The notes beneath the pieces are model-generated. The model saw nothing but the letters and a program-made list of their open reading frames with translations. It ran no database searches and was not told the DNA's origin. From Bacteroidota bacterium (GTDB taxonomy: Bacteria; Bacteroidota; Bacteroidia; Bacteroidales; JAIPAH01), in assembly GCA_021767705.1 (NCBI GenBank), contig JAASSU010000002.1, forward strand, positions 1 to 63,107: 63,107 bases of DNA, in the 5' to 3' direction. Position numbers and translations under genes: made by a program. Shown piece after piece: positions 19,521 through 34,103 of the stretch. Numbering within the stretch: the stretch's first letter is position 1; each line of letters opens with the position of its first letter.

Positions 19521-20672
19521 TTATTCTGTTTGATAGCGTGGTATTCTTGAAGGCAGCCTGGTCAGCAGTTCGTAGTTCATACTGTTGTTCATATCGCTGA
19601 ACGAACTGACTGTGATGGTCTTTTCTCCCTGTTCGCCTATTAATACCACTTCATCGTGTACTTTCACTTCCGGTAAATCTGTTACATCTACAACCATCAT
19701 GTTCATGTTAACGGCCCCTACCACCGGAACACGTTTTCCGTTGATGAGCACATGCCCCATATTGCTCAGGTTTCTGCTAAACCCATAACCGTAACCAACG
19801 GGAACAGTGGCTATTTTGCTGTCGCGGTTGGTAATATAACTGGCACCATAGCTAACATACTCATTTTCTTTTACCCGGTTAACGCTCATTACTTTGCTTT
19901 TCCACGATAAGACCCTTTTTAGTGGATCTTTTAGTGACTTCCCGTTTTCAAGGTGCAGCATCTTTGTTTCGTTATCGGGCCAAAATCCATAATTCGATAT
20001 GCCCACACGTACCAGATCCATCGAGGACTCAGGAAAGTTTAGCACCCCTGCAGAGCATGCAAGATGGCGGTATCCCGGTTTCAAACCTGATTGCATAAAG
20101 TTACCGCATAGTTTTTTGAATGTGCTGATTTGTTGCCTGATACGGGGAAAGTTGCCCAGGTTTTCTGCTCCTGCAAGGTGCGAGCACAAGCCTTCCAAAA
20201 CAAGGTTTTCAGAATTGGACTTTAGTGTTTCCATTACCCAGGGCAACTGGTCGTTACAAAAACCAGTGCGGTGCATCCCGGTTTCCAGCTCCACATGTAT
20301 CCTTGCAGGCTTGGAGGTCTTTTTGCTTATCTCAACCACCTTTTCAAGCCTTTCGGGGGTGAAAACAAAAAACGAAATGTCGTTCTCAATAGCCCATTCA
20401 AGATAATCATCATCAACAAAACCCATGATCATGATGTGGCACGTTTCCTCTTTGACTTTGATGGCCCGCCGGGCTTCTTCCACACTGAAGACGGAAAAAT
20501 GATCCACGCCGCATTCTTCGATCATTGGCAACAGGTCTTCAATACCATGGCCGTAGGCATTAGCCTTGATGACCATAGAGAATTTAGCTCCCGGGCCAGC
20601 CTTTTCTTTCATAAACCTGATGTTGTTGTTTAACGCACTTTTGTTTAATTCGATGTAGGATGTAAAAAGCAT
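19521..20672 (-). CDS. alr: Alanine racemase
   Basis: PLP-lysine motif VIKANAYGHG, collinear with Alr throughout. I chose the start at MLFTSYIELN (20672). The track's longer ORF (to 20747) adds 25 non-conserved residues. Confidence 0.88.
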   Translation of the reverse strand: MLFTSYIELNKSALNNNIRFMKEKAGPGAKFSMVIKANAYGHGIEDLLPMIEECGVDHFSVFSVEEARRAIKVKEETCHIMIMGFVDDDYLEWAIENDISFFVFTPERLEKVVEISKKTSKPARIHVELETGMHRTGFCNDQLPWVMETLKSNSENLVLEGLCSHLAGAENLGNFPRIRQQISTFKKLCGNFMQSGLKPGYRHLACSAGVLNFPESSMDLVRVGISNYGFWPDNETKMLHLENGKSLKDPLKRVLSWKSKVMSVNRVKENEYVSYGASYITNRDSKIATVPVGYGYGFSRNLSNMGHVLINGKRVPVVGAVNMNMMVVDVTDLPEVKVHDEVVLIGEQGEKTITVSSFSDMNNSMNYELLTRLPSRIPRYQTE

Positions 20673-20791
20673 TTTCTGTAAAAGTTTTATAATGTTAAAG
20701 TTCTCATGACTCTTTCGGAAAAAACCATGCTTCAAAAGTGGCAGCACACTTTTTTCAGGCTCTGCTCAATCCTGTTAAAGAAAAAGGCAGC

Positions 20792-22732
20792 TCAAACCAG
20801 CGCCACATCGGTATGGATTTCGAGCAAGGCTGTTCCGTTATGCGACAGTACTTTTCTCATAGCTTCGCTCAGCTCTTTCTTATCGGTGACTTTAACACCC
20901 AGGGCCCCGCAACTGTTGGCGTATCCTGAAAAATCAGGATTGCCCAGGCCGGTGGCAAACACATCCAGCTCACCTGAACGCTGCTCTTTCGATATCTTGC
21001 CAAGCTCATTGTTGTTGAGCAGGATGAGCTTGATGTTCATCCCGTATTTTACGGAGGTGGTAAGCTCGGCCATATACTGGGCAAAGCCCCCGTCGCCGGC
21101 CACTGCCACTATCTGCTTGTTCCCTTTGGTTGCGGCCCAGGCGCCCATGGCCGCCGGAAAAGCAAAGCCAATAGAGCCCAGGTAACCCGACATCAAAAAC
21201 TGCTGGTCTTTACTCTCGAAATAACGCCCCAACGAATAGGCATTATTCCCCACATCCACGCATACAACCGCATTAGCATCAATCAGATCCGACAAATGGC
21301 TAAATACCGTCACGGAATTGATGCCTTTACCGCGGTCTTCGGCCAGCCTCTTATCTTTTTCTTGATGCCAGATTTCCCAGCGCTGTTTTATTTCAGGCCG
21401 CTGGTCTGTAGTGGTCACCTGATCCTTGAGTGCTTCTCTGAAAAGTTTCATGGTGGCAGACAACTCCCCCCACACCGGGGCATCAATTTTATGAAACTTA
21501 CTCAATGCCAAGGGATCCATATCGACCTGGATAGTGGGCTTTTTGGGTGTGATGCCGGTATGGTTGCTGAAAGACGCCCCCAACACAATGAGCAGGTCGC
21601 TTTCGTTCATAAACCACGAAGCGATAGGCGTGCCGCTGCGCCCGAGGACCCCACCGGCCAGCGGATGGTGATCGGAGATAAGGCCTTTGCCTTTGAAAGT
21701 GGTAAGCACCGGAGCGTTCAGTGTTTCAGCAAAAGCGATAATATCTTTCATATGGAATCGTGCCCCGTGGCCTACGATCACCACCGGCCTTTTTGCTTCT
21801 TTGATTAGCCCCAGCGCTTTGTTAAAGCTTCCTTCGGATGGGGAAATGGCATGAGCGCCCAGCCTGCCTTCAGGGGTCTGGGCTTGCTCATTGCCGGCAG
21901 GCAGCTCCTGTATCTCGTCAGGGAAAGTCAGGTGTGAAACATCGCGGTTAATAAGGGCATGTTTAATGGCGAGGGTCGCAAGTTCGGCATGCTGGCTGTC
22001 GCGCTGGATACGGTGATTGAATCCGGCTACCGTATTAAAAGCCCTCACCAGGTCCACTTCCTGGAAATTTCCTGTGCCCACGACCTGTGTAGCCACTTGT
22101 CCGGTCAGAGCCAGCAAGGGAGCCCGGTCGACTTTCGCATCCCACATGCCGGTAAACATGTTGGTAGCCCCGGGGCCGGCAATGGAAAAACAGGCTGCCG
22201 GTTTACCCGTAAGTTTCCCATAAGCGCTGGCGGCAAAAGCACCCGCGCCCTCATGACGGATGCCGATATACTTCAGCTTATCTTCTTTCTGTGCCCTCCT
22301 GAGGGCATCGGCCATTCCGAGGTTCGAGTGTCCCACCATTCCGAAAACAGTATCCACACCCCAATTAGCCATCGTTTTCACCATGACATCTGAAAGTGTT
22401 GTCTCATGTGGTTTCTCTTCTTCTATCCCAATGTAAACGCCATCTTCTCTTTCTTCCACAGGGTAAGTATCCACACCATCATCAAAACCCGGTGCTTTCC
22501 CGGTACAGGGGTGGTAATCCCAGCCGTGCCACGGGCAGCGCAGGATGCCGTTCTCAATGCTTCCCTCGCCAAGCGGGCCTCCCTGGTGCGGGCAATGGTT
22601 GTCGAGGGCGCATATCTTCCCTTCGTAATGTGACAGGGCTATTTGCTTTTTGCCGGCTGTTACGGTCATTACACGGCCGGCGGCCAATTCAGATTTGTTT
22701 TCGAGTACTTTTATCCAGTTCATAGGCTTCAT
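20792..22732 (-). CDS. Rieske [2Fe-2S] domain fused to a thiamine-diphosphate enzyme (PoxB/ALS/Xsc superfamily)
   Basis: Residues 47-69 read CPH-x16-CPWH (Rieske ligands). The TPP N-terminal domain follows (GVDTVFGMVGHSN..., GPGATNM), then the central domain, then the C-terminal ThDP-binding motif GDGGFAQY...LNNN. Confidence 0.85.
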   Translation of the reverse strand: MKPMNWIKVLENKSELAAGRVMTVTAGKKQIALSHYEGKICALDNHCPHQGGPLGEGSIENGILRCPWHGWDYHPCTGKAPGFDDGVDTYPVEEREDGVYIGIEEEKPHETTLSDVMVKTMANWGVDTVFGMVGHSNLGMADALRRAQKEDKLKYIGIRHEGAGAFAASAYGKLTGKPAACFSIAGPGATNMFTGMWDAKVDRAPLLALTGQVATQVVGTGNFQEVDLVRAFNTVAGFNHRIQRDSQHAELATLAIKHALINRDVSHLTFPDEIQELPAGNEQAQTPEGRLGAHAISPSEGSFNKALGLIKEAKRPVVIVGHGARFHMKDIIAFAETLNAPVLTTFKGKGLISDHHPLAGGVLGRSGTPIASWFMNESDLLIVLGASFSNHTGITPKKPTIQVDMDPLALSKFHKIDAPVWGELSATMKLFREALKDQVTTTDQRPEIKQRWEIWHQEKDKRLAEDRGKGINSVTVFSHLSDLIDANAVVCVDVGNNAYSLGRYFESKDQQFLMSGYLGSIGFAFPAAMGAWAATKGNKQIVAVAGDGGFAQYMAELTTSVKYGMNIKLILLNNNELGKISKEQRSGELDVFATGLGNPDFSGYANSCGALGVKVTDKKELSEAMRKVLSHNGTALLEIHTDVALV

Positions 22733-22755
22733 ATTACAAATATTTTGAAAATTAA

Positions 22756-23616
22756 TTAAATAGCCAGTGTGTAAAGCATAAACAGACCCAAAATGGCGAA
22801 CAGCACCGAAATGCTGACCTTCATTTTGTCTTCGGGCACCTTGCTTTGCAGTTTAGCACCAATCTGACCGCCAATGATCACGCCGGGCCCTGTAAAAATA
22901 ATAAGGTTCAATACTTGCTCAAATGTTTCGGGCCCCTGATTGAGGAAAGCTACAAAATGTCCGGCAGATGCTATAAACACGGTAATGACCACTACAAAAA
23001 TGGAAGTCCCCACTGCTACCGGTGGCGGCACTTTACAACGGGCCACCAGGTGGTATTCCTGCAACTCGGCCAGCCCTACTGATATCATGCCCAAAAAGCC
23101 TCCTCCGATGGCTGCAAACGATCGGCCCATATTTTTGTTGCACACCGTGTAGTGGTACACATTGCCCTTGCCATCGGTAAGCTCGCTTTCGTAGGTTTTA
23201 TAAAATTCATGCTGCCTTTCTTTTTCCTTTTTCTCGCGTTCTTCCTTGCGCCATGAATTGTAAAGCTGAAAGCCGATAAAAACCAATCCCACCGCAAAAA
23301 CAGCTTTAAGGATAACCGGAGGGACTGCTTCGCTGTAGACAGCCCCCAGTATGGCAAAGGGAACGGAAAAAATCAACAGGTTGATGGCCAGCTTATAATC
23401 GACCAGCCGGGATCGCATGTAGGCGATGGCCCCTGATGTAAACCCAAAAAATTCGGTGGCCAGGGCCGTTCCTATTGCAACCGTGGGGTCGAGCCGCAAA
23501 GCCAGGATAAACAGTGGCGAAAAAAATACCGCCCCGCCCACACCGCTCGACATGGCGATTGTGGCTATCAGAATCGACAAGGGAAACAAGTACCAGAATT
23601 CAAGCGCGAGTTCCAT
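22756..23616 (-). CDS. TauE/SafE-family anion (sulfite/organosulfonate) exporter
   Basis: 286-aa protein with 4+4 TM helices, glycine-rich helices (SSGVGGAVFFSP, GGGFLGMISVG) and a charged central loop of about 45 aa. Confidence 0.8.
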   Translation of the reverse strand: MELALEFWYLFPLSILIATIAMSSGVGGAVFFSPLFILALRLDPTVAIGTALATEFFGFTSGAIAYMRSRLVDYKLAINLLIFSVPFAILGAVYSEAVPPVILKAVFAVGLVFIGFQLYNSWRKEEREKKEKERQHEFYKTYESELTDGKGNVYHYTVCNKNMGRSFAAIGGGFLGMISVGLAELQEYHLVARCKVPPPVAVGTSIFVVVITVFIASAGHFVAFLNQGPETFEQVLNLIIFTGPGVIIGGQIGAKLQSKVPEDKMKVSISVLFAILGLFMLYTLAI

Positions 23617-23619
23617 AAC

Positions 23620-24426
23620 CTATAATTTTTGATGTAGATATCCGTTAGCGGCTTCCTGGATAAAACTTTGAATCATTTGATTGTCAGTTTTCAGATTTTG
23701 CCCAGTGAGGCGGTTGAGGGTTAAAACAGATCCTTTCCATGCCCCGTTGGTTATCCACTGTCCATCAGAAAGCCCTGCTAATTTTTTATAGTCTATCTCT
23801 GTTCCGGAAGCATATCCGGCAAGGTAGAAATAGGATTGTCCAGCCATGCTGTCTTCCATAGCCAGGCCAAAACCAATACCGAAGCCAGGGCTTACCTGCG
23901 CATACACTCCCGTGTCGAAGTGGTGGGGCCAGATACGTATCTCACTTTCAGCCTGTAAAAACCCCAGGAAATGGAGGCAGGCTTCATTGGCAAGCTGACG
24001 GAAATAGCTCCATTTTTGGATACCACTCTCATTGATGTCGTTTGAAGCTATGCGCCCTATTTTGTAATCGGGGATTTCAAAATGCAGTTCCCGGAATATT
24101 TTTTCCGCCGGAAGCCCTACCGACTGTGGATAAACTGAAACGTCCTGTTCGATTTCCTGCATGGTTTTGTTGAAAACCGAAATAGTGTCCTTTATGCCGA
24201 GATGCTGATCCATCCATTCAAAATGCATGGCTCTGACATTCAACGCAAGAAAGATTTTTTGCTGCTTGTGTTCCACCCAGCGGCCCGTAAGTTTGCCCGA
24301 TACCGGATCGAAATAAAGATTGGTGTGGCTGTCGTCTTCTTTTTCGGGCAGAAAAGCCCTGTTGGTCTTGGCAAGCACCTGGCTGAGCCAGTGTACCTGC
24401 CGGTCTGTCTTATTGTATTCCTGCAT
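23620..24426 (-). CDS. Hypothetical protein (no family recognised), embedded in the operon
   Basis: 268-aa ORF, soluble-looking. Its start overlaps the upstream gene's 3' end by 17 nt, and its stop lies 3 nt before the tauE-like start. Confidence 0.65.
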   Translation of the reverse strand: MQEYNKTDRQVHWLSQVLAKTNRAFLPEKEDDSHTNLYFDPVSGKLTGRWVEHKQQKIFLALNVRAMHFEWMDQHLGIKDTISVFNKTMQEIEQDVSVYPQSVGLPAEKIFRELHFEIPDYKIGRIASNDINESGIQKWSYFRQLANEACLHFLGFLQAESEIRIWPHHFDTGVYAQVSPGFGIGFGLAMEDSMAGQSYFYLAGYASGTEIDYKKLAGLSDGQWITNGAWKGSVLTLNRLTGQNLKTDNQMIQSFIQEAANGYLHQKL

Positions 24427-26017
24427 AGTTAATTCCTGTTAATTGGTGTATTGAATAATCGATAGTTGAAAGATCGTCTGCGTTAAACTGCGTAACGGAT
24501 GAATAACCACAGGCTCTTGCAATGACCTTCATAAGCTCGTTGCTGGCATCAAAAAAGTTGTGCAGTTGCTTTGCCGAATTTTGTACGATGATGCGGTTCC
24601 TGAGGTTTTCTTTTTGTGTGGCAATCCCCACCGGGCAATTGTTGGTGTGGCAGGCCCTCATGCCGAGGCAGCCGATAGCCTGCAGGGCCGCGTTAGATAC
24701 TGCGATGGCATCGGCCCCCAACATCAGTGCTTTAGCAAAGTCATCAGCCACACGGAGGCCACCGGTAACAATGAGTGTGACATCACCGGCCTCTTTCTTA
24801 TCGAGATGTTTCCGTGCCCTGGCAAGTGCCGGGATCGTGGGCACGTTGATGTTGTTACGCAGGATGGAGGGCGCGGCTCCTGTTCCGCCGCCACGGCCAT
24901 CGAGTATAATGTAATCGGCAGAAGCTTCGAGGGCAAAATCAATATCGGCTTCTAGGTGGCTTGCCGCGATTTTAAACCCCACGGGAATCCCTCCGGTTTC
25001 TTCCCTGACCCGGTCGGCCAGCTCTTTGAAATCGGCAGGGGTATTCAAGTCGGGGAAAGCAGCCGGCGAAATGGCGGCCTGTCCTTCTTCCAATCCCCTG
25101 ACAGAAGCTATCTCGCCGGTGACCTTGTGCCCGGGAAGGTGCCCGCCGGTGCCGGTTTTTGCTCCCTGACCTCCCTTGAAGTGGAAGGCCTGTACTTTTC
25201 TGACCTTGTCCCACGAAAAACCAAACTTCCCGGACGCCAACTCATAAAAGTAACGTGAATTGCTTTGCTGTTCTTCAGGCAACATACCCCCTTCGCCACT
25301 GGCAATGCCGGTACCGGCCATTTCAGCGCCTTTAGCAAGGGCTATCTTGGCTTCGCGCGATAAGGCCCCGAAGCTCATGTCCGACACAAAAACAGGCATG
25401 TCGAGCACTAAAGGTTTTTGGGCGCGAGGGCCGATCACCACCTTAGTATCCACCTTGTCGTTGTCCATCAAAGGTTTCCGCGACAGTTGCGCCGGCAGAA
25501 ACTGAATCTGCTCCCACTTCGGAAGGGTGTTTCTGTCCACTCCCATTGCCTCGGTAGAGCCGTGGTGGCCGACATTCTTCAGCCCGTTACGGGCCAACTC
25601 CTGGATATATCCGGTAAAAGGCTCGGTATCCTCGGGGTGCGTATCGGCATACTGACCCATATACGCATCGCGATCGAAGGGCTGCGGGTGCTCCTCGGCA
25701 AATGCCTCCACTTCATCGGCATCTACCAGCACCTGGTCGTTCTCCACTTTAGCATAAAACTTTTGCAGGGCCTCCTCGTTGTTGTATTCCGAAACGCCGC
25801 TATCATAGCGGTAATCCCAGAAATGCACCCCGCAGATGAGGTTATCACCTTCGATGTGGCCATCGGCAAGCAGGGCGCCGCGGTGCAGGCAACGGCCATA
25901 CAGCACCGAAATGTTCTCATCGTAGCGTATCACCACTAAATCAACATCTTTGCAGATAGCATGGGCCGGGGCACGGTCTTGCAGTTCCGAAAACTTTAGA
26001 ATGGGTATTAAATTCAT
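24410..26017 (-). CDS. Rieske [2Fe-2S] domain fused to a glutamate-synthase-type FMN domain (GltB domain 2-like)
   Basis: Residues 43-65 read CLH-x16-CGVH. The GltS FMN-domain motifs follow: DMSFGALSREAKIALAKGA, SGEGG, and KGGQGAKTGTGGHLPGHKV. Confidence 0.85.
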   Translation of the reverse strand: MNLIPILKFSELQDRAPAHAICKDVDLVVIRYDENISVLYGRCLHRGALLADGHIEGDNLICGVHFWDYRYDSGVSEYNNEEALQKFYAKVENDQVLVDADEVEAFAEEHPQPFDRDAYMGQYADTHPEDTEPFTGYIQELARNGLKNVGHHGSTEAMGVDRNTLPKWEQIQFLPAQLSRKPLMDNDKVDTKVVIGPRAQKPLVLDMPVFVSDMSFGALSREAKIALAKGAEMAGTGIASGEGGMLPEEQQSNSRYFYELASGKFGFSWDKVRKVQAFHFKGGQGAKTGTGGHLPGHKVTGEIASVRGLEEGQAAISPAAFPDLNTPADFKELADRVREETGGIPVGFKIAASHLEADIDFALEASADYIILDGRGGGTGAAPSILRNNINVPTIPALARARKHLDKKEAGDVTLIVTGGLRVADDFAKALMLGADAIAVSNAALQAIGCLGMRACHTNNCPVGIATQKENLRNRIIVQNSAKQLHNFFDASNELMKVIARACGYSSVTQFNADDLSTIDYSIHQLTGINYAGIQ

Positions 26018-27237
26018 GGTTCCAATTTTAGATTTGTTTTTATTTCAATTTCGGACAAAAGGGTTTTGTGCACCGGGCATTTGTTCGCTATTTCGAGCAG
26101 TTTTTGGCGTTGTTTGTCATCCAACTCCCCAATCAACTCTATTTCCCTTGAAAACTGATCGATACGGCTGCTTTCGTCGTTTTCGCATTTAGCGCAATCT
26201 TCTCCATGCACTTTGTTATGGTCGATGTGCACATTGACCTCATCAAGTTTCCATTTCTTACGGTCGGCATAAATCCTGATGGTCATGGCTGTGCAGGTAG
26301 CCAGGCCTGATGAGACGAGATCGTAAGGGGTTGGGCCAAAATTGTTTCCTCCGTATTTTTCGGGTTCATCCCCGGTCAAAAAATGATCGCCGGCCTTAAT
26401 GGCGGTGGTAAACTTGTTTTCTTCAGTGAGGCTGGCCACCACCTGCCTCTTAGTCTGCGGCCTGGCAGGCTCCTTAAAGTCGATATACCTTTTGGCCCAG
26501 TGGGCAATCACATTACCAATGTAGCGCGAATCACCGCCATCAGAAAGCAGGTGGTCGGCCCCATCAAGAGAAACAAAGCTTTTGGGGTGGCGCGCCGCCT
26601 GGAATATTTTTGCAGCATTCTCTATTTCCACCACCCTGTCTTGTGGCGAGTGGGACACAAGAATGGCTTTGCGGAGGTTTTTCAGCACATCATCCATGTT
26701 GACCGCTTTCAGGTCATCAAGAAATTGTTTTTTGATTTTGAAAGGCCTTCCACCGATGTTTACTTCTGCCATGCCCTTTTCTTCAATATCTTCAAGGCTT
26801 GAAGAAAGTAGTTTGGAAACATGCATCGGGTCGGAGGGGGCACCGATAGTGGCTACGGCATCTACCGTTTTCATGGAGTGGGCCGCATATAAAACCGCAG
26901 CACCGCCCAGCGAATGGCCGATAAGTAGTGAGGGTGCCATGAAATTTTCTTCGAGAAAGCTGGCTGCGGATTTCAGGTCATCGATATTGCTTGAAAAATT
27001 GGTGTCGGAAAAGTCCCCTTCACTGTCGCCCAAGCCCGTAAAATCAAAGCGCATGATACCAAACCCTGCTCCGGTAATGGCCCTGCTTATATTACGTACC
27101 GCCGAAAGGTTTTTTGTGCAGGTAAAGCAGTGTGCAAACAGTGCAAAACCGCCCGGTTTTCGGTCGGCAGGCAGCTCTATCCGGGCATTCAGTTCAATGC
27201 CTTCTTTGTTGGTAAATGTAACTTTCTGACTTTTCAT
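26014..27237 (-). CDS. Bifunctional alpha/beta-hydrolase / OsmC-family protein
   Basis: Nucleophile elbow GHSLGG in the N-terminal half. The C-terminal OsmC-like region includes GLATCTAMTIRIYA and ANKCPVHKTL. I chose the start at MKSQKVTF (27237); the track ORF extends to 27288. Confidence 0.85.
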   Translation of the reverse strand: MKSQKVTFTNKEGIELNARIELPADRKPGGFALFAHCFTCTKNLSAVRNISRAITGAGFGIMRFDFTGLGDSEGDFSDTNFSSNIDDLKSAASFLEENFMAPSLLIGHSLGGAAVLYAAHSMKTVDAVATIGAPSDPMHVSKLLSSSLEDIEEKGMAEVNIGGRPFKIKKQFLDDLKAVNMDDVLKNLRKAILVSHSPQDRVVEIENAAKIFQAARHPKSFVSLDGADHLLSDGGDSRYIGNVIAHWAKRYIDFKEPARPQTKRQVVASLTEENKFTTAIKAGDHFLTGDEPEKYGGNNFGPTPYDLVSSGLATCTAMTIRIYADRKKWKLDEVNVHIDHNKVHGEDCAKCENDESSRIDQFSREIELIGELDDKQRQKLLEIANKCPVHKTLLSEIEIKTNLKLEP

Positions 27238-27291
27238 TGGGTTCTTATTTTTGATAATTCCACATCGTGTTAAACTTATTTTCAGCACATT

Positions 27292-28653
27292 TCAGGCATG
27301 AACCGGCAAACGTCCTTCGGCTACCTGCGAAAAATACCTTTCAATATTTTGTATTCCCTGGTTAATGAGTGGACAGTAAGCCTTGAAAAAAGCCGTTTGT
27401 TCCTGTTCTGAGGATGGGTTTTCACGTTTCCAGTTTTCAAGAACTGCATCGCCGTCATAATCAACAAAACTGAACCTTACCGAAAAATCATCCTCAGGCA
27501 AGAGTAAACTGTTGCCCGGTAACAGGGCCGTATGTTCAACCTCTATCAAATGTTCGCATAAATTAGCGCAGTTGGTTAAACCTATTGTTTTCAGTTCCTC
27601 AGCATACTCGTTAAAATCAACATAAAGATAAAAACCCCCATAAGGCACTGTGGCTTTCACACCGTGTATATTGTTTAATAAACCAGCAGCAATTCGTCCG
27701 ATTGTTGCATGAATGCGTGCCGTATCCGTCATATATTTTTCAACCGCCTCAATCCTGCTGAATCCTGCCAAAGCTGCATATTGAATGGGGGCGGCCACAC
27801 ATGAGTAGGTAGAGCCAGCCACAATCAACACATCCTTGATCAGCTTCTCATTATCCGGGAAAACACCTATCCCGAGCCGATACCCCCCGGCAGAGCGGTC
27901 TTTCGACAGCCCCCCGGTTACGATAGTGCCTTCGGGAAAGATTTTTCCCATGCTGATGAATTTGCTGAAATCGAAAGAAGTCCGCGCATAGATTTCATCG
28001 GCTATTACTATGATGTTGTGTTTCCGGCAAATGGTGGCCAGGGCTTTTAGCTCATCTTCTGTGTAAACGGCACCTGTGGGATTGTTGGGGTTGTTCAGGA
28101 TGAGAATATGCTGATCGTGGCTCGAATTGTTTGCTGCTTTTTCGAGAAGGGCCGGGGTCAGTTTAAAATGGCTGTCTTCGTGCAACCTGATGGGCTGTAC
28201 CTGCTTTTTCAGGATAAGAGCCTGTGGAAGATAGCTGACCCACGATGGGGTGGGTATCAATACGTCCCCTTCCGTAACACTCAAAATAATACTGATTATT
28301 TCTTTGCTTCCCGGGCTGATGATTACCTGGCGGGCCTGGCTCTGCAGCTTGAAAACATCATTGTAGTAATCTGAAACAGCCTTCCTTAATTCGGCAATGC
28401 CCGCCGTGGGCAGGTAGCTGTGCTTATTCGCATTATCTCTGAGCGCATTGATGATTTCAGCAGGAGGCGAAAATGGCGACTGTCCGAAAGCAAAATGATG
28501 ATAAGGTCGGTGGCAGCCTATCTTCGAGCATTTTTCACGATATTTTTTTATCTGGTCGTTGATACGCAGGTTGGCCGGAATGGCGATGCTATCGAGATGA
28601 TGCTCGAGTTTTATTTCCATTTTTTTTCTCTTGTTGAATAAATTAAAAATCAT
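27292..28653 (-). CDS. PLP-dependent aminotransferase, class I/II fold (a C-S lyase cannot be excluded)
   Basis: Motifs NNPNNPTG, ADEIY and the PLP-lysine motif LSKDRSAGGYRLG. The ATG at 28653 overlaps the upstream stop (ATGA). An alternative ATG lies at 28620. Confidence 0.85.
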   Translation of the reverse strand: MIFNLFNKRKKMEIKLEHHLDSIAIPANLRINDQIKKYREKCSKIGCHRPYHHFAFGQSPFSPPAEIINALRDNANKHSYLPTAGIAELRKAVSDYYNDVFKLQSQARQVIISPGSKEIISIILSVTEGDVLIPTPSWVSYLPQALILKKQVQPIRLHEDSHFKLTPALLEKAANNSSHDQHILILNNPNNPTGAVYTEDELKALATICRKHNIIVIADEIYARTSFDFSKFISMGKIFPEGTIVTGGLSKDRSAGGYRLGIGVFPDNEKLIKDVLIVAGSTYSCVAAPIQYAALAGFSRIEAVEKYMTDTARIHATIGRIAAGLLNNIHGVKATVPYGGFYLYVDFNEYAEELKTIGLTNCANLCEHLIEVEHTALLPGNSLLLPEDDFSVRFSFVDYDGDAVLENWKRENPSSEQEQTAFFKAYCPLINQGIQNIERYFSQVAEGRLPVHA

Positions 28654-29606
28654 AAGCCCCAGAGTGAATTAACAAACCATTTACGGTGGTCGTAATAATT
28701 TTTGATTATCCTGAAACCTGCTTCAGTTGCATGTTCCGATATCATCTGTTCATCATATTTCTGTGAAATTTCCACGAAAATGGTTTCATTTTCGGCAAAC
28801 GAAATAGACATATCGAGTTTTTCTAAACGAACAGCCTGTTCTTTTTTACTTACTAAAAAACTTTTTGCGGCCCCGCTGTTTTGGTCATATTTTTCTTTGT
28901 GAACGAAATTGGCAGTGTTAAAATCAGCCTCCAATTCTTCATTGATGCGTGTAAGCAGGTTGAGGTTAAAGGCTGCAGTAAGGCCCTGAGGGTCGTTGTA
29001 GGCTTTTAGTATTATTTCCGGATCTTTTTTTAAATCAAAGCCAATGAGTAGTTTATCCCCTTCATTTAATACTTTACGCACTTGTTGTAAAAAGTTTACG
29101 GACTGCCCATAAGTAAAATTCCCAATGTTTGATCCGAGGAAAAGGGCAATCTTAGGTTTTGATCCGTTTAACCCTGATATTAAGTGAAAATAATCGCCCG
29201 TAAGCCCCTCAATCTTTAATTGTGGCAACTCCGATGCCAGTTGCTGTTGAAGTTGCATAATTGCCTGATGCGAAATATCAATGGGGATGTACCTGAAATC
29301 CATTCCCTGGTGAAGCAATGCTTTTAATAGTATTTTTGTTTTCAAACCATCACCGGCCCCCAGTTCAATGATTTCAAATTCACCGGCATCCGAAATGAAA
29401 TCCCGGCAGATAGTATTTTTTTGTTCAGAAAATATTTCAAGCTCACAGTCGGTGAGGTAATATTCATCCATTCGCATGATCGCCTCAAAAATTTCGCTGC
29501 CTTTTTGATCATACAGGTACTTTGACTGAAGATATTTTGGGGAAGACGAAAGCCCCCTCCGGACCTCTTCAGCAAATTCTGTTGTGGTTAATGTAGCATT
29601 TTCCAT
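28650..29606 (-). CDS. EgtD-like SAM-dependent amino-acid N(alpha)-methyltransferase (Methyltransf_33 family)
   Basis: 318 aa. Motifs PKYLQSKYLYDQKGSEIFEAI...EYYLTDCELEI and ELGAGDGLKT...YIPIDIS are collinear with histidine N-alpha-methyltransferase EgtD. The substrate is not inferable. Confidence 0.82.
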   Translation of the reverse strand: MENATLTTTEFAEEVRRGLSSSPKYLQSKYLYDQKGSEIFEAIMRMDEYYLTDCELEIFSEQKNTICRDFISDAGEFEIIELGAGDGLKTKILLKALLHQGMDFRYIPIDISHQAIMQLQQQLASELPQLKIEGLTGDYFHLISGLNGSKPKIALFLGSNIGNFTYGQSVNFLQQVRKVLNEGDKLLIGFDLKKDPEIILKAYNDPQGLTAAFNLNLLTRINEELEADFNTANFVHKEKYDQNSGAAKSFLVSKKEQAVRLEKLDMSISFAENETIFVEISQKYDEQMISEHATEAGFRIIKNYYDHRKWFVNSLWGL

Positions 29607-29763: not shown

Positions 29764-31101
29764 CTAACTATCTGCAAGTTCTTTTTTGACTTCCGGTAAC
29801 TTGCTTTCATTTGACAAATGTTTTGGCTTTAGCAGGATGCGCAAGGATTGGTCGTAGGTAAAATAATTCCAAGTCCAGTTCAGGAAAATGAGCATCCGGT
29901 TTTTCACGCCCATGATGGTGAATAAATGAACCAGCGACCACAGCACCCAAGCTGCAAAGCCTTTGATTTTTCCTACAGGCAAATCAGCCACGGCGAGGTT
30001 ACGGCCTATGGTAGCCAGCGAACCCTTATCCCTATATTCAAAGTCTTCCTCTTTTTCGCCACTATTGGCTTTTACCAGGTTTTTTGCCAATTGCTTCGCT
30101 TGCTGTAATGCCGCTTGAGCAACCTGCGGGTGGCCATTGGGATATTTGGGGGTTTCCATCAGGCTGATATCGCCGATAGCAAAAATGTTCGTGTGGCTTC
30201 TGATCCTGTTTTGTCGATCCACCAGGATGCGTCCGCCCCGGCCATATGCTTCCTGTGGCAGGCCCAGCACTGCATTTGCTGTAACGCCCGCCGACCAGAT
30301 CAGGGTTTTTGACGAAACTGAGCTGCCATCAGACAACCTCACACAAGAACCATCGTGGTGTTCTACCCGGGTTTTCAGGTGAACTTCAACGCCCAATTTC
30401 TGGAGGTACTTCAGTGCGCTTGCCGATGCTCGTTCCGATAAGGCTGCCAGCACCCTTGGAGCAGCTTCATAAATGGCAATGCGCATTTTCGAAAGATCCA
30501 GTTCCGGGTATTCTTTCGGGAAGATGTATTTGCGCATTTCAGCCAAAGCCCCGGCGAGCTCCACACCCGTTGGGCCTCCACCAACAATGGCAATGTTCAT
30601 GTATTGTTCTGCTTTTTTCGGATCTGTTTCCAGCAGAGCCTGCTCGAAATGTTCGAGAATGCTGTTGCGGATAAGGATGGCATCGGAAGCGGACTTCATC
30701 GACAAGGCATTGTTTTCCATTTCTTTCTGGCCGAAAAAGTTGGTTTTTGCGCCCATAGCCAGCACAAAGTAATCATATTTCAGCCGCCCTATGCTGGTAA
30801 CAACCTCATTGGCCCCTGCATCCACACGCTCTATTTCTGCAATGCGGAAATGTACATCGCCGGCATTTTGCAGCACTTTCCTTAACGGGAAGGAGATAGC
30901 ACTGGGCTCAAGCCCGGCAGTGGCCACCTGGTAGAGCAGTGGCTGAAACTGGTGAAAGTTGTTCTTGTCCAGTAAAATAATCTGAAACCCTTTCCCCAGT
31001 AATTTCCGGGTCAGTTTCAACCCGGCAAAACCTGCGCCGGCAATTACTACCCTTTTCTTATTTGTGCCTGGTATATTTGGTATTGCATTCATATTCTCCA
31101 T
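29764..31101 (-). CDS. Type II NADH dehydrogenase (NDH-2)
   Basis: Two dinucleotide folds (VVIAGAGFAGL and IAIVGGGPTGVELAG), FAIGD, and a C-terminal membrane-anchor region. Confidence 0.88.
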   Translation of the reverse strand: MENMNAIPNIPGTNKKRVVIAGAGFAGLKLTRKLLGKGFQIILLDKNNFHQFQPLLYQVATAGLEPSAISFPLRKVLQNAGDVHFRIAEIERVDAGANEVVTSIGRLKYDYFVLAMGAKTNFFGQKEMENNALSMKSASDAILIRNSILEHFEQALLETDPKKAEQYMNIAIVGGGPTGVELAGALAEMRKYIFPKEYPELDLSKMRIAIYEAAPRVLAALSERASASALKYLQKLGVEVHLKTRVEHHDGSCVRLSDGSSVSSKTLIWSAGVTANAVLGLPQEAYGRGGRILVDRQNRIRSHTNIFAIGDISLMETPKYPNGHPQVAQAALQQAKQLAKNLVKANSGEKEEDFEYRDKGSLATIGRNLAVADLPVGKIKGFAAWVLWSLVHLFTIMGVKNRMLIFLNWTWNYFTYDQSLRILLKPKHLSNESKLPEVKKELADS

Positions 31102-31205
31102 AAAACATTCTGATTGTTATTACGAATCAATTTTTTTATTTGAGGAATTTCTTCCTGTAACCCATTTGGATTGTATAAACTCTTCCCGCATAAACAAGAC
31201 TATGT

Positions 31206-31850
31206 TTAGTCTTCACTTTCTAATGCTTCCAGGATATCCGCCACATTCGACCGCTTTTTGTAATCGGGGTTAAACTGACGCCAGGTAATGGTCCCGCTTT
31301 GGTCTATCACATAAGTGGCCGGTATGGGCAGTCGCTGGCTCTCATCAGAATGTGTTTTTTTCAGTTTTGCCCCCAAGAGGGTGTTGTAAGTTATTAAGGT
31401 AGCTTTAGAGGGCTTAAAAGTGACATCATAGGCGTCTGAAATTTTGTAGCCTTCATCGTACAGCAAGGTAAATTCCGCGCCCGTTTTCTTCTCCATCTTG
31501 CCCAGGTATTCCGGCTTTTCGGGGGATATTGCAATGACTTTGGCCCCTTTTTCCTCTATAAGCTTCAGGCTGTCTTGTATTTTGCTCAGGTGCTTGTTAC
31601 AAACCGGGCACCAAAACCCGCGGTAAAAAATTAATACCACCGGCCCTTGTTTTAGGGCTGCTTCAAGTGAAAATGTATTGTTGTTGGCATCGAGGGCGCT
31701 AAAAACAGGGGCTCTTGTGCCCACGGAAAGGCCCTCGGCTTCTTTGGCCGAACGGTAGTCTTGTGCTTTCATATCTGATATATTTAAGGTGAAAATAATG
31801 GCAAGGATGAGCCCTTGGATGGCTTTGCTTTTTCTGCTGTTTCTATTCAT
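31206..31850 (-). CDS. Secreted thioredoxin-fold peroxiredoxin/redoxin (AhpC/TSA family)
   Basis: Signal peptide, then FYRGFWCPVCNKHL (CxxC). I chose the start at MNRNSRK (31850); the track ORF extends to 31883. Confidence 0.82.
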   Translation of the reverse strand: MNRNSRKSKAIQGLILAIIFTLNISDMKAQDYRSAKEAEGLSVGTRAPVFSALDANNNTFSLEAALKQGPVVLIFYRGFWCPVCNKHLSKIQDSLKLIEEKGAKVIAISPEKPEYLGKMEKKTGAEFTLLYDEGYKISDAYDVTFKPSKATLITYNTLLGAKLKKTHSDESQRLPIPATYVIDQSGTITWRQFNPDYKKRSNVADILEALESED

Positions 31851-32042
31851 GCTTGTTGTTTTTTGTCGTTTCAAAATGACCAATCACCCTATTAGTGTTT
31901 GTTTTTCGAAAACCTGACAAAACGAACAGCATTTTTTTGGGACAGGCTGTTTAATGGGGCGTATGGGGGCACATATTTTGAGATCTAAACCACAAACCCA
32001 AAGGCAGGATCAAAAACATAATCATCACAAATCATTATTTAT

Positions 32043-33425: not shown

Positions 33426-34103
33426 TCAGCGCAAGCGAAGCAAAGGACTGATACTGAACGGAGGTTGTTCTATCGCGAATTCCTTGTAAACGGCCACTGG
33501 AATTCCAAGGTCGGCGAGATAGACCTGAATGTTGTGGGGCAACTTTAGCAATTCGGTTTTCATGGCCGCCAATGTCATCACAATATCCGGATTGAAGATG
33601 GATGAGCCAGTGTTTTTGTCAAACCCCACCGGAATATCGAGGGAAATTTTGGTGCAATTCAAGTTGTTTGCTTTCTTTACGGAGTCAAGTAAATTATCGG
33701 CGAGGGGCAGTCTTTGCGAAAACCCCAGGTACGCATCGACAAAAATATCGGGTTGTTCGTTAGTGAATTCCTTTGCCCCAAAAGTTTCAGCCCTTTCCTT
33801 TTGTAACCCAGGTAATGGTTTCAGGTTATTATCGGGGATGTCTAAGAACAGCTTGTAGCCCCACGCAGCCAAACGGCGTGCGGCTACCAGTCCTCCGCCG
33901 CCATTGTTGCCTTTGCCAACTCCAATCACCACATTACAGGGCTTTGGTTTTATATGTGTTACGAGGACAGCCAACTGTAAACCGGCATTCTCCATCATCA
34001 GCTCAATCGGGAGCTGGTAGTTTGAAACCGCGAGGTAATCCATTTCCTGAAAACGCTGAATAGAAAGGTGGTTTTTGCCGGTTTTATAATCTGGGATAAT
34101 CAT
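33426..34103 (-). CDS. NAD(P)H-hydrate epimerase (YjeF N-terminal domain only)
   Basis: GKGNNGGGGLVAARRL and DAYLGF motifs of the YjeF_N family. 225 aa, with no fused dehydratase domain. Confidence 0.8.
   Translation of the reverse strand: MIIPDYKTGKNHLSIQRFQEMDYLAVSNYQLPIELMMENAGLQLAVLVTHIKPKPCNVVIGVGKGNNGGGGLVAARRLAAWGYKLFLDIPDNNLKPLPGLQKERAETFGAKEFTNEQPDIFVDAYLGFSQRLPLADNLLDSVKKANNLNCTKISLDIPVGFDKNTGSSIFNPDIVMTLAAMKTELLKLPHNIQVYLADLGIPVAVYKEFAIEQPPFSISPLLRLR

Follow-up and report, generated by a model that had tools for sequence, protein, structure and literature searches.

The window considered here is a 63,107-nucleotide stretch of DNA from a member of the Bacteroidota (NCBI GenBank assembly GCA_021767705.1, contig JAASSU010000002.1, positions 1 to 63,107 of the forward strand). 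It carries a gene encoding a Rieske [2Fe-2S] module fused to the N-terminus of a complete thiamine diphosphate (ThDP)-dependent enzyme. This gene (Rieske-ThDP; Table 1) is the seventh of a tightly packed operon, several junctions of which are start-stop overlaps. The operon encodes, in order, an EgtD-type methyltransferase, an aminotransferase, an alpha/beta-hydrolase-OsmC fusion, a Rieske-Glu_synthase protein (Rieske-GltS), a protein designated u268, a TauE-type exporter and Rieske-ThDP, and is followed by alr.

Four domains were recognized in the fusion protein by Pfam: a Rieske domain (PF00355, residues 6-81, E = 2e-16, 60.1 bits against a gathering cutoff of 20.3) and TPP_enzyme_N, TPP_enzyme_M and TPP_enzyme_C, each with an E value of about 1e-33 and well over its gathering score. 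The order PYR, central, PP, seen with Pfam and by Foldseek comparison of an AlphaFold2 (AF2) model, is that of the POX/AHAS ('decarboxylase-like') superfamily. The initial annotation of this DNA had placed Rieske ligands (CPH-x16-CPWH) at residues 47-69 and a full three-domain ThDP enzyme about 40 residues further on, and both assignments stand. The ligand motif, CPHQGGPLGEGSIENGILRCPWH, is at residues 47-69, 43 residues separate the last ligand from the start of the ThDP part, and the quoted motifs are in place (GPGATNM at 186, FQEVD at 223, GDGGFAQY at 546 and NNN at 573, giving GDG-x24-NN). The AF2 model of the monomer had a predicted local distance difference test score (pLDDT) of 85 and a predicted template modelling score (pTM) of 0.84.

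Table 1. The Rieske-ThDP gene, its domains and neighbouring genes, with positions in the window
Feature	Position	Strand	Remarks
Rieske-ThDP fusion gene	20792..22732	-	One uninterrupted open reading frame (ORF), 646 aa, ATG start, stop codon 20792-20794
Rieske [2Fe-2S] ferredoxin-like domain, residues 1-104	22421..22732	-	Pfam PF00355, PDB matches, AF2 pLDDT 78-93
Cluster-ligand motif C47-P-H49-x16-C66-P-W-H69	22526..22594	-	Invariant in 79/79 orthologs
7-residue linker, residues 105-111, EEKPHET, at the Rieske/PYR junction	22400..22420	-	Frame continuous, alignable in orthologs
TPP_enzyme_N (PYR) domain, residues 112-229; catalytic Glu E161 (RHEG), FQE 223-225	22046..22399	-	Pfam
TPP_enzyme_M (central, presumed FAD-binding) domain, residues 304-429	21446..21823	-	Pfam
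TPP_enzyme_C (PP) domain, residues 493-639; GDG-x24-NN, invariant stretch L577-G-K579-I-x-x-E583-Q584; no C-terminal extension	20816..21256	-	Pfam
TauE/SafE-family anion exporter	22756-23616	-	23-bp gap to the fusion gene
u268, conserved 268-aa protein	23620-24426	-	No known family or fold detected
Rieske-[3Fe-4S]-FMN glutamate-synthase-like protein (Rieske-GltS)	24410-26017	-	535 aa
Alpha/beta-hydrolase-OsmC fusion	26014-27288	-	
Class I/II aminotransferase	27292-28653	-	
EgtD-type histidine methyltransferase	28650-29606	-	Over the TIGR03438 cutoff
NDH-2-type flavoprotein (NDH2_C domain) and AhpC/TSA peroxiredoxin	29764-31883	-	Immediately upstream of the operon
Stand-alone YjeF_N-domain protein (NAD(P)HX-epimerase-like)	33426-34103	-	

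It had been feared that separate genes for a Rieske ferredoxin and a ThDP enzyme were merged by a frameshift or an assembly error near 22400-22440, or that the Cys/His ligands would be lost on careful alignment. Neither is the case. The suspect segment (residues ~105-111) is in frame within the ORF and aligns without gaps to the orthologs, and C47, H49, C66 and H69 are kept in all 79 full-length orthologs aligned (the set used for the conservation counts below). In a search of a 5.8-billion-protein collection the best 120 homologs were examined; every one had an identity of at least 70% and the same four-domain architecture, with Rieske and TPP_enzyme_N, M and C together. With each GTDB species represented by one genome, a scan gave at least 598 stretches encoding a relative; the best 80 of them, examined for coverage, began at residue 1-6 of the query and matched over almost its full length, with 59-77% identity. 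The same single ORF is thus present in the 120 best homologs and the 80 best genome loci, across more than ten phyla. These searches gave nothing in support of an artefact. Hundreds of orthologs collinear with the gene refute it, and its probability is negligible. The Rieske-ThDP fusion is genuine, and chance and mis-assembly are excluded.

Among the best 80 stretches of the GTDB scan, carriers of the fusion in the Bacteroidota belong to Flavobacteriales, Saprospiraceae, Cytophagales and Bacteroidales. Others are found in Balneolaceae, Chlorobiota, Ignavibacteria, Nitrospirales, Planctomycetota, Acidobacteriota, Gemmatimonadota, Myxococcota, Gammaproteobacteria, Lentisphaeria and one cyanobacterium. 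The catalytic Glu (E161) and GDG-x24-NN are invariant or nearly so across the orthologs. In public records the homologs are named only 'thiamine pyrophosphate-binding protein', 'pyruvate oxidase' or 'Rieske 2Fe-2S domain-containing protein'. The initial annotation knew of no characterized superfamily member with a covalently attached Rieske centre; a full-text literature search, with most subscription journals outside its coverage, likewise found no published description of a Rieske-ThDP or rubredoxin-ThDP enzyme. The guanine-plus-cytosine content is 0.49-0.52 over the genes for Rieske-ThDP, u268 and Rieske-GltS (20000-26000), compared with 0.41-0.47 in the flanks. Considered with the sequence identity of the fusion over so many phyla, this points to strong constraint, to a module that has spread horizontally, or to both.

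The Rieske part resembles, in sequence, a soluble low-potential ferredoxin of the dioxygenase type. The best PDB match of the N-terminal 110 residues was the ferredoxin of naphthalene dioxygenase (2qpz, 3e-12), followed by T4moC and CarAc, and the ligand motif lies within the stretch aligned to the Rieske motif of the naphthalene dioxygenase ferredoxin. The ligand loops, CPHQGG and CPWHGW, contain none of the disulfide cysteines of bc1/b6f-type Rieske proteins. From what is established about such ferredoxins, we take the domain to be of the low-potential electron-shuttle type.

The ThDP part scored best with pyruvate oxidase. The top NCBIfam model was PRK08611 (405 bits, curated cutoff 742), and lower scores were given by an archaeal-type pyruvate dehydrogenase (340), biosynthetic acetolactate synthase (TIGR00118, 307, cutoff 538), SpxB (TIGR02720, 286, cutoff 638), PoxB (PRK09124, 285, cutoff 792) and Xsc (PRK07525, 231, cutoff 620). 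When the sequence was searched against the PDB, PoxB of E. coli was best (E = 2e-61), with plant AHAS, POX of L. plantarum (LpPOX) and PQO of C. glutamicum close behind. The top Foldseek matches of the AF2 model were 1ybh (AHAS), 9ev6 (PQO), 4fee (LpPOX) and 3eya (PoxB), with template modelling scores of 0.7-0.8. As these alignments span ~555-580 columns, which is about the length of the ThDP part, the Rieske domain of the model appears to be without a counterpart in solved ThDP enzymes.

E161 aligns with the catalytic Glu of PoxB. In the POX/AHAS superfamily this residue activates the aminopyrimidine of ThDP, and GDG-x(24-27)-NN is the Mg-diphosphate motif. E583 is the equivalent of LpPOX E483 and E. 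coli PoxB E469 and is invariant in the 79 orthologs, as is the following Q584. From the LG[MF]xxx[WE] alignment, the position of E583 is presumably that of W574 in Arabidopsis AHAS, so that a POX-type Glu stands in place of the Trp that determines substrate specificity in AHAS. The AHAS, PQO, POX and PoxB families all bind flavin adenine dinucleotide (FAD). In the central domain of the fusion protein G321xG323, T345..K349-G350, G364..G367, D379..G385 and D404 are invariant in the orthologs, and the glycine-rich nucleotide-binding motifs among them are also invariant in the wider clade; this conservation is consistent with bound FAD but is not proof of it. The alignment to PoxB stops at PoxB residue ~525-530 of 572, and the 79 orthologs have neither a PoxB-type C-terminal membrane-binding/autoinhibitory peptide nor any other C-terminal tail. 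A different outlet for electrons would therefore be needed.

Relatives of the fusion indicate what such an outlet may be. When 1.84 billion cluster representatives were searched exhaustively with HMMER, the full-length fusion accounted for only a few 50%-identity clusters. The nearest relatives without a Rieske domain (35-47% identity) carry an N-terminal rubredoxin in its place, confirmed by Pfam in P0128 and recognized by CxxC...CPxC motifs in P0131, P0132, P0141 and P0146 (loci L003-L005 and L168). P0134 and P0140 have no extra domain. In the clade of P0123 (873 aa; L006:8001-10622), zf-CDGSH, Fer4_19 and a second zf-CDGSH precede the Rieske domain. For the relatives too, the pyruvate oxidase PRK08611 was the best model, with a score under its cutoff. 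From these sequences, one-electron metal modules have been added repeatedly and independently at the N-terminus of a POX-like clade. No other comparative evidence argues as strongly for a redox-active ThDP module whose electron outlet is the appended domain. The rubredoxin and CDGSH architectures of the sister clades appear to be uncharacterized as well. No GltS-like partner was found in the neighbourhoods of the rubredoxin-ThDP relatives.

The most informative context of the fusion is a second Rieske fusion, Rieske-GltS, which is encoded two genes upstream and was absent from the initial annotation. To assess conservation of neighbours, the ORFs of 83 loci anchored on Rieske-ThDP were clustered, and counts were taken from 51 loci flanked by 5 kb or more on either side. 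The Rieske-GltS gene was present in 36 of them, spanning phyla and nearly always upstream on the same strand, often within 100 bp. A gene for u268 was found in 35 loci, and 44 had one or the other. Less frequent were genes for a Na+/H+ exchanger (18 loci), for a six-transmembrane Ferric_reduct protein with a C-terminal Rieske domain together with a 265-aa protein of unknown type (c5_265; 17 loci), and for malic enzyme (a producer of pyruvate), EgtD and TauE (5 loci each, TauE being a lineage-specific neighbour seen in this window and in four other loci). Malic enzyme was noted within the cluster in 8 loci when the count was not confined to the well-flanked ones.

Rieske-GltS has its own N-terminal Rieske domain (ligands C43, H45, C62 and H65) and a [3Fe-4S] signature, C450-x5-C456-x4-C461-P, matching C-x5-C-x4-CP. 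This signature, the motifs SGEGG and GQGAKTGTGGHLPG and a conserved Arg are invariant in 47 sequences. Residues in the segments forming the flavin mononucleotide (FMN)/2-oxoglutarate site are conserved, with His as the equivalent of GltS Q978, and the protein is without the glutaminase, central and C-terminal GXGXG domains of GltS. Judging by these motifs, the [3Fe-4S] cluster and the FMN/2-oxoacid site may provide a ready path of electron entry.

The 920 database homologs of u268 are all named 'hypothetical', and no match was found in Pfam, NCBIfam or a PDB profile search. Its AF2 model is of high quality (pLDDT 95, pTM 0.91), and the best Foldseek match in the PDB reached only E ~0.1 with a template modelling score of 0.2; according to the model, u268 may be a new fold. 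H12, D31, H34, W166-P-H-H-F-D171, Y199 and Y201 are invariant.

The Rieske domain of the Ferric_reduct protein (for example, L002:7792-9601, L034:12538-14361 and L045:13613-14410) has a CKH-x16-CPWH motif and shares 43% identity with its counterpart in the ThDP enzyme. From the positive-inside rule, the six transmembrane helices have both termini inside and the Rieske domain is cytoplasmic. The 265-aa partner, whose gene always follows, has one transmembrane helix and a large external Cys-containing domain, and genes for the small transmembrane proteins c7_145 and c8_72 often come next. By its sequence features this pair looks like a transmembrane electron-export module.

The initial annotation proposed that the fusion wires an oxidative decarboxylation to a one-electron carrier. 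The architectural part of that proposal is correct; the redox wiring is a deduction, strengthened by four results. The ThDP part scores best against pyruvate oxidase/PoxB/PQO and keeps the POX-type E583; the Rieske domain groups with soluble ferredoxins of low potential; at the N-terminal position where the fusion has its Rieske domain, sister clades have rubredoxin or CDGSH plus Rieske; and other Rieske-tagged redox proteins are the usual neighbours. The fusion protein is thus probably a PoxB/PQO-like 2-oxoacid oxidative decarboxylase, dependent on ThDP and probably on FAD, that passes electrons through its own Rieske centre to partner proteins.

FAD binding, the substrate, the direction of electron flow and the identity of the partner are what we infer for the following scheme. 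A 2-oxoacid, likely pyruvate, would add to ThDP and be decarboxylated to the hydroxyalkyl-ThDP enamine, yielding acetate or acetyl-phosphate and CO2. Two electrons from the enamine would pass to the flavin of the central domain, which would hand them on singly to the N-terminal Rieske centre, either in its own subunit or in a partner subunit. The fused Rieske centre would take the place of the quinone/membrane contact of PoxB/PQO, with neither a membrane quinone nor O2 as acceptor, and would deliver the electrons to an external partner. In this genome the partner is most likely the co-operonic Rieske-GltS, acting as a reductase; elsewhere the six-transmembrane cytochrome-b (Ferric_reduct) protein with its cytoplasmic Rieske domain may accept electrons as well or instead. 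The family placement and the malic enzyme gene in some clusters make pyruvate the default substrate. No Rieske ferredoxin is known with a potential nearly as negative as that of the pyruvate/acetate couple, and the ThDP enzyme would therefore be the electron donor rather than the acceptor. Rieske-GltS is the most plausible sink here because it is built like the core of ferredoxin-dependent GltS with a 'ferredoxin' attached.

Several observations weigh against this interpretation. All curated equivalog cutoffs in NCBIfam were missed by the fusion protein, and AHAS scored nearly as well as PoxB in both the PDB sequence search and Foldseek; the FAD of AHAS is not redox-active. The invariant K579 occupies the position of a Phe between ThDP and FAD (F479 in LpPOX, F465 in E. 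coli PoxB) that is thought to relay electrons from ThDP to FAD. This Lys could mean another electron path, or it may allow the substrate to be an anionic one, for example 2-oxoglutarate or sulfopyruvate. Direct Rieske-to-Rieske transfer between two enzymes is without any characterized precedent that we know of. P0122, a fusion with 55% identity, stands alone, as does the CDGSH variant, and a survey anchored on Rieske-ThDP makes the fusion look like a hub by construction. In the reciprocal scan of metagenome loci anchored on Rieske-GltS (those with at least 5 kb downstream), the fusion was within 8 kb in 14 of 31. On sequence grounds the ThDP part is nearest to the FAD-dependent pyruvate oxidase/PoxB/PQO group, yet it is not classifiable as a member, since the cutoffs were failed, the relay Phe and the C-terminal peptide are absent and an extra cofactor domain is present.

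The near-equal scores of AHAS structures and sequences and the absence of the relay Phe would also fit a non-redox AHAS- or Xsc-like carboligase or lyase with a structural FAD, in which the Rieske domain senses redox state or iron, or serves as an appendage with a regulatory or structural role. The TauE/SafE gene (of a sulfite-exporter family) that adjoins the fusion here and in four other loci likewise recalls Xsc/TauE clusters. However, E583 is the Glu of POX/PoxB rather than the Trp of AHAS, and the AHAS and Xsc models both scored below pyruvate oxidase and below their own cutoffs. Moreover, recurrent fusion of three different one-electron modules and linkage to Fe-S, flavin and haem redox proteins are hard to explain by regulation, so that a non-redox role is improbable. 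Desulfonation of the Xsc type, considered in view of the TauE neighbour, was rejected on the low score of the Xsc model and the presence of TauE in so few loci.

The missing relay Phe also bears on a flavin-independent route, as in PFOR, in which the Rieske cluster would take single electrons directly from the hydroxyalkyl-ThDP enamine via a ThDP radical. In 2-oxoacid:ferredoxin oxidoreductases, [4Fe-4S] clusters take electrons from such a radical, and in the fusion protein just seven residues tether the Rieske domain to the PYR domain, which forms the active site. However, the central domain has invariant nucleotide-binding motifs, the closest structural relatives are all in FAD-binding families, and a low-potential radical beside a Rieske centre (~ -150 mV) would be without precedent in the superfamily. 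Direct transfer is accordingly very improbable, and electron flow through a flavin remains the preferred reading.

Linkage between the fusion and Rieske-GltS is strong but not obligatory. An obligatory two-protein complex was also considered and is weakened by the reciprocal counts and by the stand-alone divergent members.

Neighbouring genes often encode consecutive steps, and the two enzymes could instead be sequential dehydrogenases. Rieske-GltS would then oxidize glutamate or another amino acid to a 2-oxoacid and NH3, and Rieske-ThDP would decarboxylate the product (for example, 2-oxoglutarate to succinate), both passing electrons through their Rieske domains to a shared third acceptor, which might be the Ferric_reduct-Rieske cytochrome b, u268 or a reductase. 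K579, in place of a hydrophobic Phe, could bind a distal carboxylate, and Rieske-GltS conserves residues of the 2-oxoglutarate/FMN-site segments. Three different Rieske-tagged proteins per cluster would fit a common docking partner, and the 2-oxoglutarate/glutamate couple (~ -140 mV) is near the potentials of Rieske ferredoxins, making either direction feasible. Against this, neither a Ferric_reduct-Rieske protein nor another obvious common acceptor is encoded in this window or in many of the loci, the malic enzyme linkage indicates pyruvate, and glutamate synthase modules normally work reductively. This arrangement is unlikely, and we favour the fusion protein as donor to Rieske-GltS.

Taken further, the Rieske domains may be plug-in connectors of an electron wire free of ferredoxin and NAD(P)H. 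The fusion would feed Rieske-GltS in a pyruvate-driven reductive amination and, in many genomes, also a NOX-like Rieske-cytochrome-b that exports electrons to the extracytoplasmic Cys-rich protein, with u268 as a third obligatory component. This wider scheme is speculative and, as a whole, rather doubtful.

The remaining genes of the operon, encoding EgtD, the aminotransferase and the hydrolase-OsmC fusion (26014-29606), are lineage-specific additions. They are translationally coupled to the Rieske genes. In the close relatives L001, L007, L029 and L104, genes for an EanB-like rhodanese and EgtD (anaerobic ergothioneine genes) take their place at the same position. Neither EanB nor the Ferric_reduct-Rieske membrane module is encoded in this window. 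A role for Rieske-ThDP as an ergothioneine-pathway enzyme was rejected on the presence of EgtD in only 5 of the 51 loci, which makes the association lineage-specific rather than a core function.

A gene for a stand-alone YjeF_N-domain protein is also present in the window, and its orthologs lie directly between those for u268 and the ThDP fusion in L102, L103, L110, L118, L022 and L029. Immediately upstream of the operon are genes for an NDH-2-type flavoprotein and a peroxiredoxin. In the Prolixibacter locus L001 the same NDH-2 is accompanied by a number of redoxin, AhpD-like and DsrE genes, which suggests that this upstream region is part of a redox or oxidative-stress island.

From its sequence and context, Rieske-ThDP appears to be a widespread and uncharacterized POX-like family within a conserved module of Rieske-tagged redox proteins. 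The family is present in hundreds of species of more than ten phyla, is highly conserved and is common in marine Bacteroidota, although present annotation gives the genes of the module no names beyond 'TPP-binding protein', 'pyruvate oxidase' or 'hypothetical'. In ThDP enzymes of the POX/AHAS superfamily electrons, if any, exit through FAD to O2 or a quinone. A built-in Rieske centre would add a third outlet, a protein-bound one-electron carrier, and so link the superfamily functionally to the unrelated PFOR enzymes. If this is true, an Fe-S acceptor within the same molecule would be a first among ThDP enzymes of this superfamily. Together with Rieske-GltS and u268 it would form a compact multi-component redox system, which may couple oxidation of central carbon to nitrogen assimilation or to transmembrane electron export. 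Such a Rieske wire could be an oxygen-tolerant replacement for the route from PFOR through ferredoxin to ferredoxin-dependent GltS.

Compared with PoxB of E. coli, PQO of C. glutamicum, the CidC-type enzyme of S. aureus and POX of L. plantarum, the fusion protein has in common the three-domain ThDP fold with its ThDP-Mg motif, two active-site residues (the catalytic Glu and the POX-type E583) and conserved nucleotide-binding motifs in the central domain, and the chemistry is probably the same. It differs in its N-terminal Rieske domain, which is in no solved and, as far as we found, no characterized member, in having no C-terminal membrane-binding or lid peptide, and in the Lys that replaces the flavin-adjacent Phe. 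In place of a quinone or O2, an Fe-S centre bound to protein is the presumed electron acceptor.

With PFOR/OFOR the fusion protein would share a logic, ThDP-dependent oxidative decarboxylation with one-electron Fe-S carriers, but not ancestry. PFOR/OFOR belong to an unrelated ThDP branch with another domain organization, and are oxygen-sensitive enzymes that use [4Fe-4S] clusters and coenzyme A and no flavin, whereas the fusion has a Rieske [2Fe-2S] centre and probably FAD.

The Rieske domain has the CxH-x16-CxxH spacing of the naphthalene dioxygenase ferredoxin, T4moC, CarAc and BphF, also has no bc1-type disulfide, and is presumed to be a one-electron shuttle like them. Those ferredoxins are free-standing proteins of ~105 aa that act between a reductase and an oxygenase. 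The domain in the fusion is joined to what would be the electron-generating enzyme itself and, unlike the Rieske ferredoxins of ring-hydroxylating oxygenase systems, has no oxygenase in its neighbourhood. Rieske-GltS, in turn, shares the FMN domain and the [3Fe-4S] motif with ferredoxin-dependent glutamate synthase and differs in the absence of the glutaminase, central and GXGXG domains and in the His at Q978; its fused Rieske domain would replace the ferredoxin donor.

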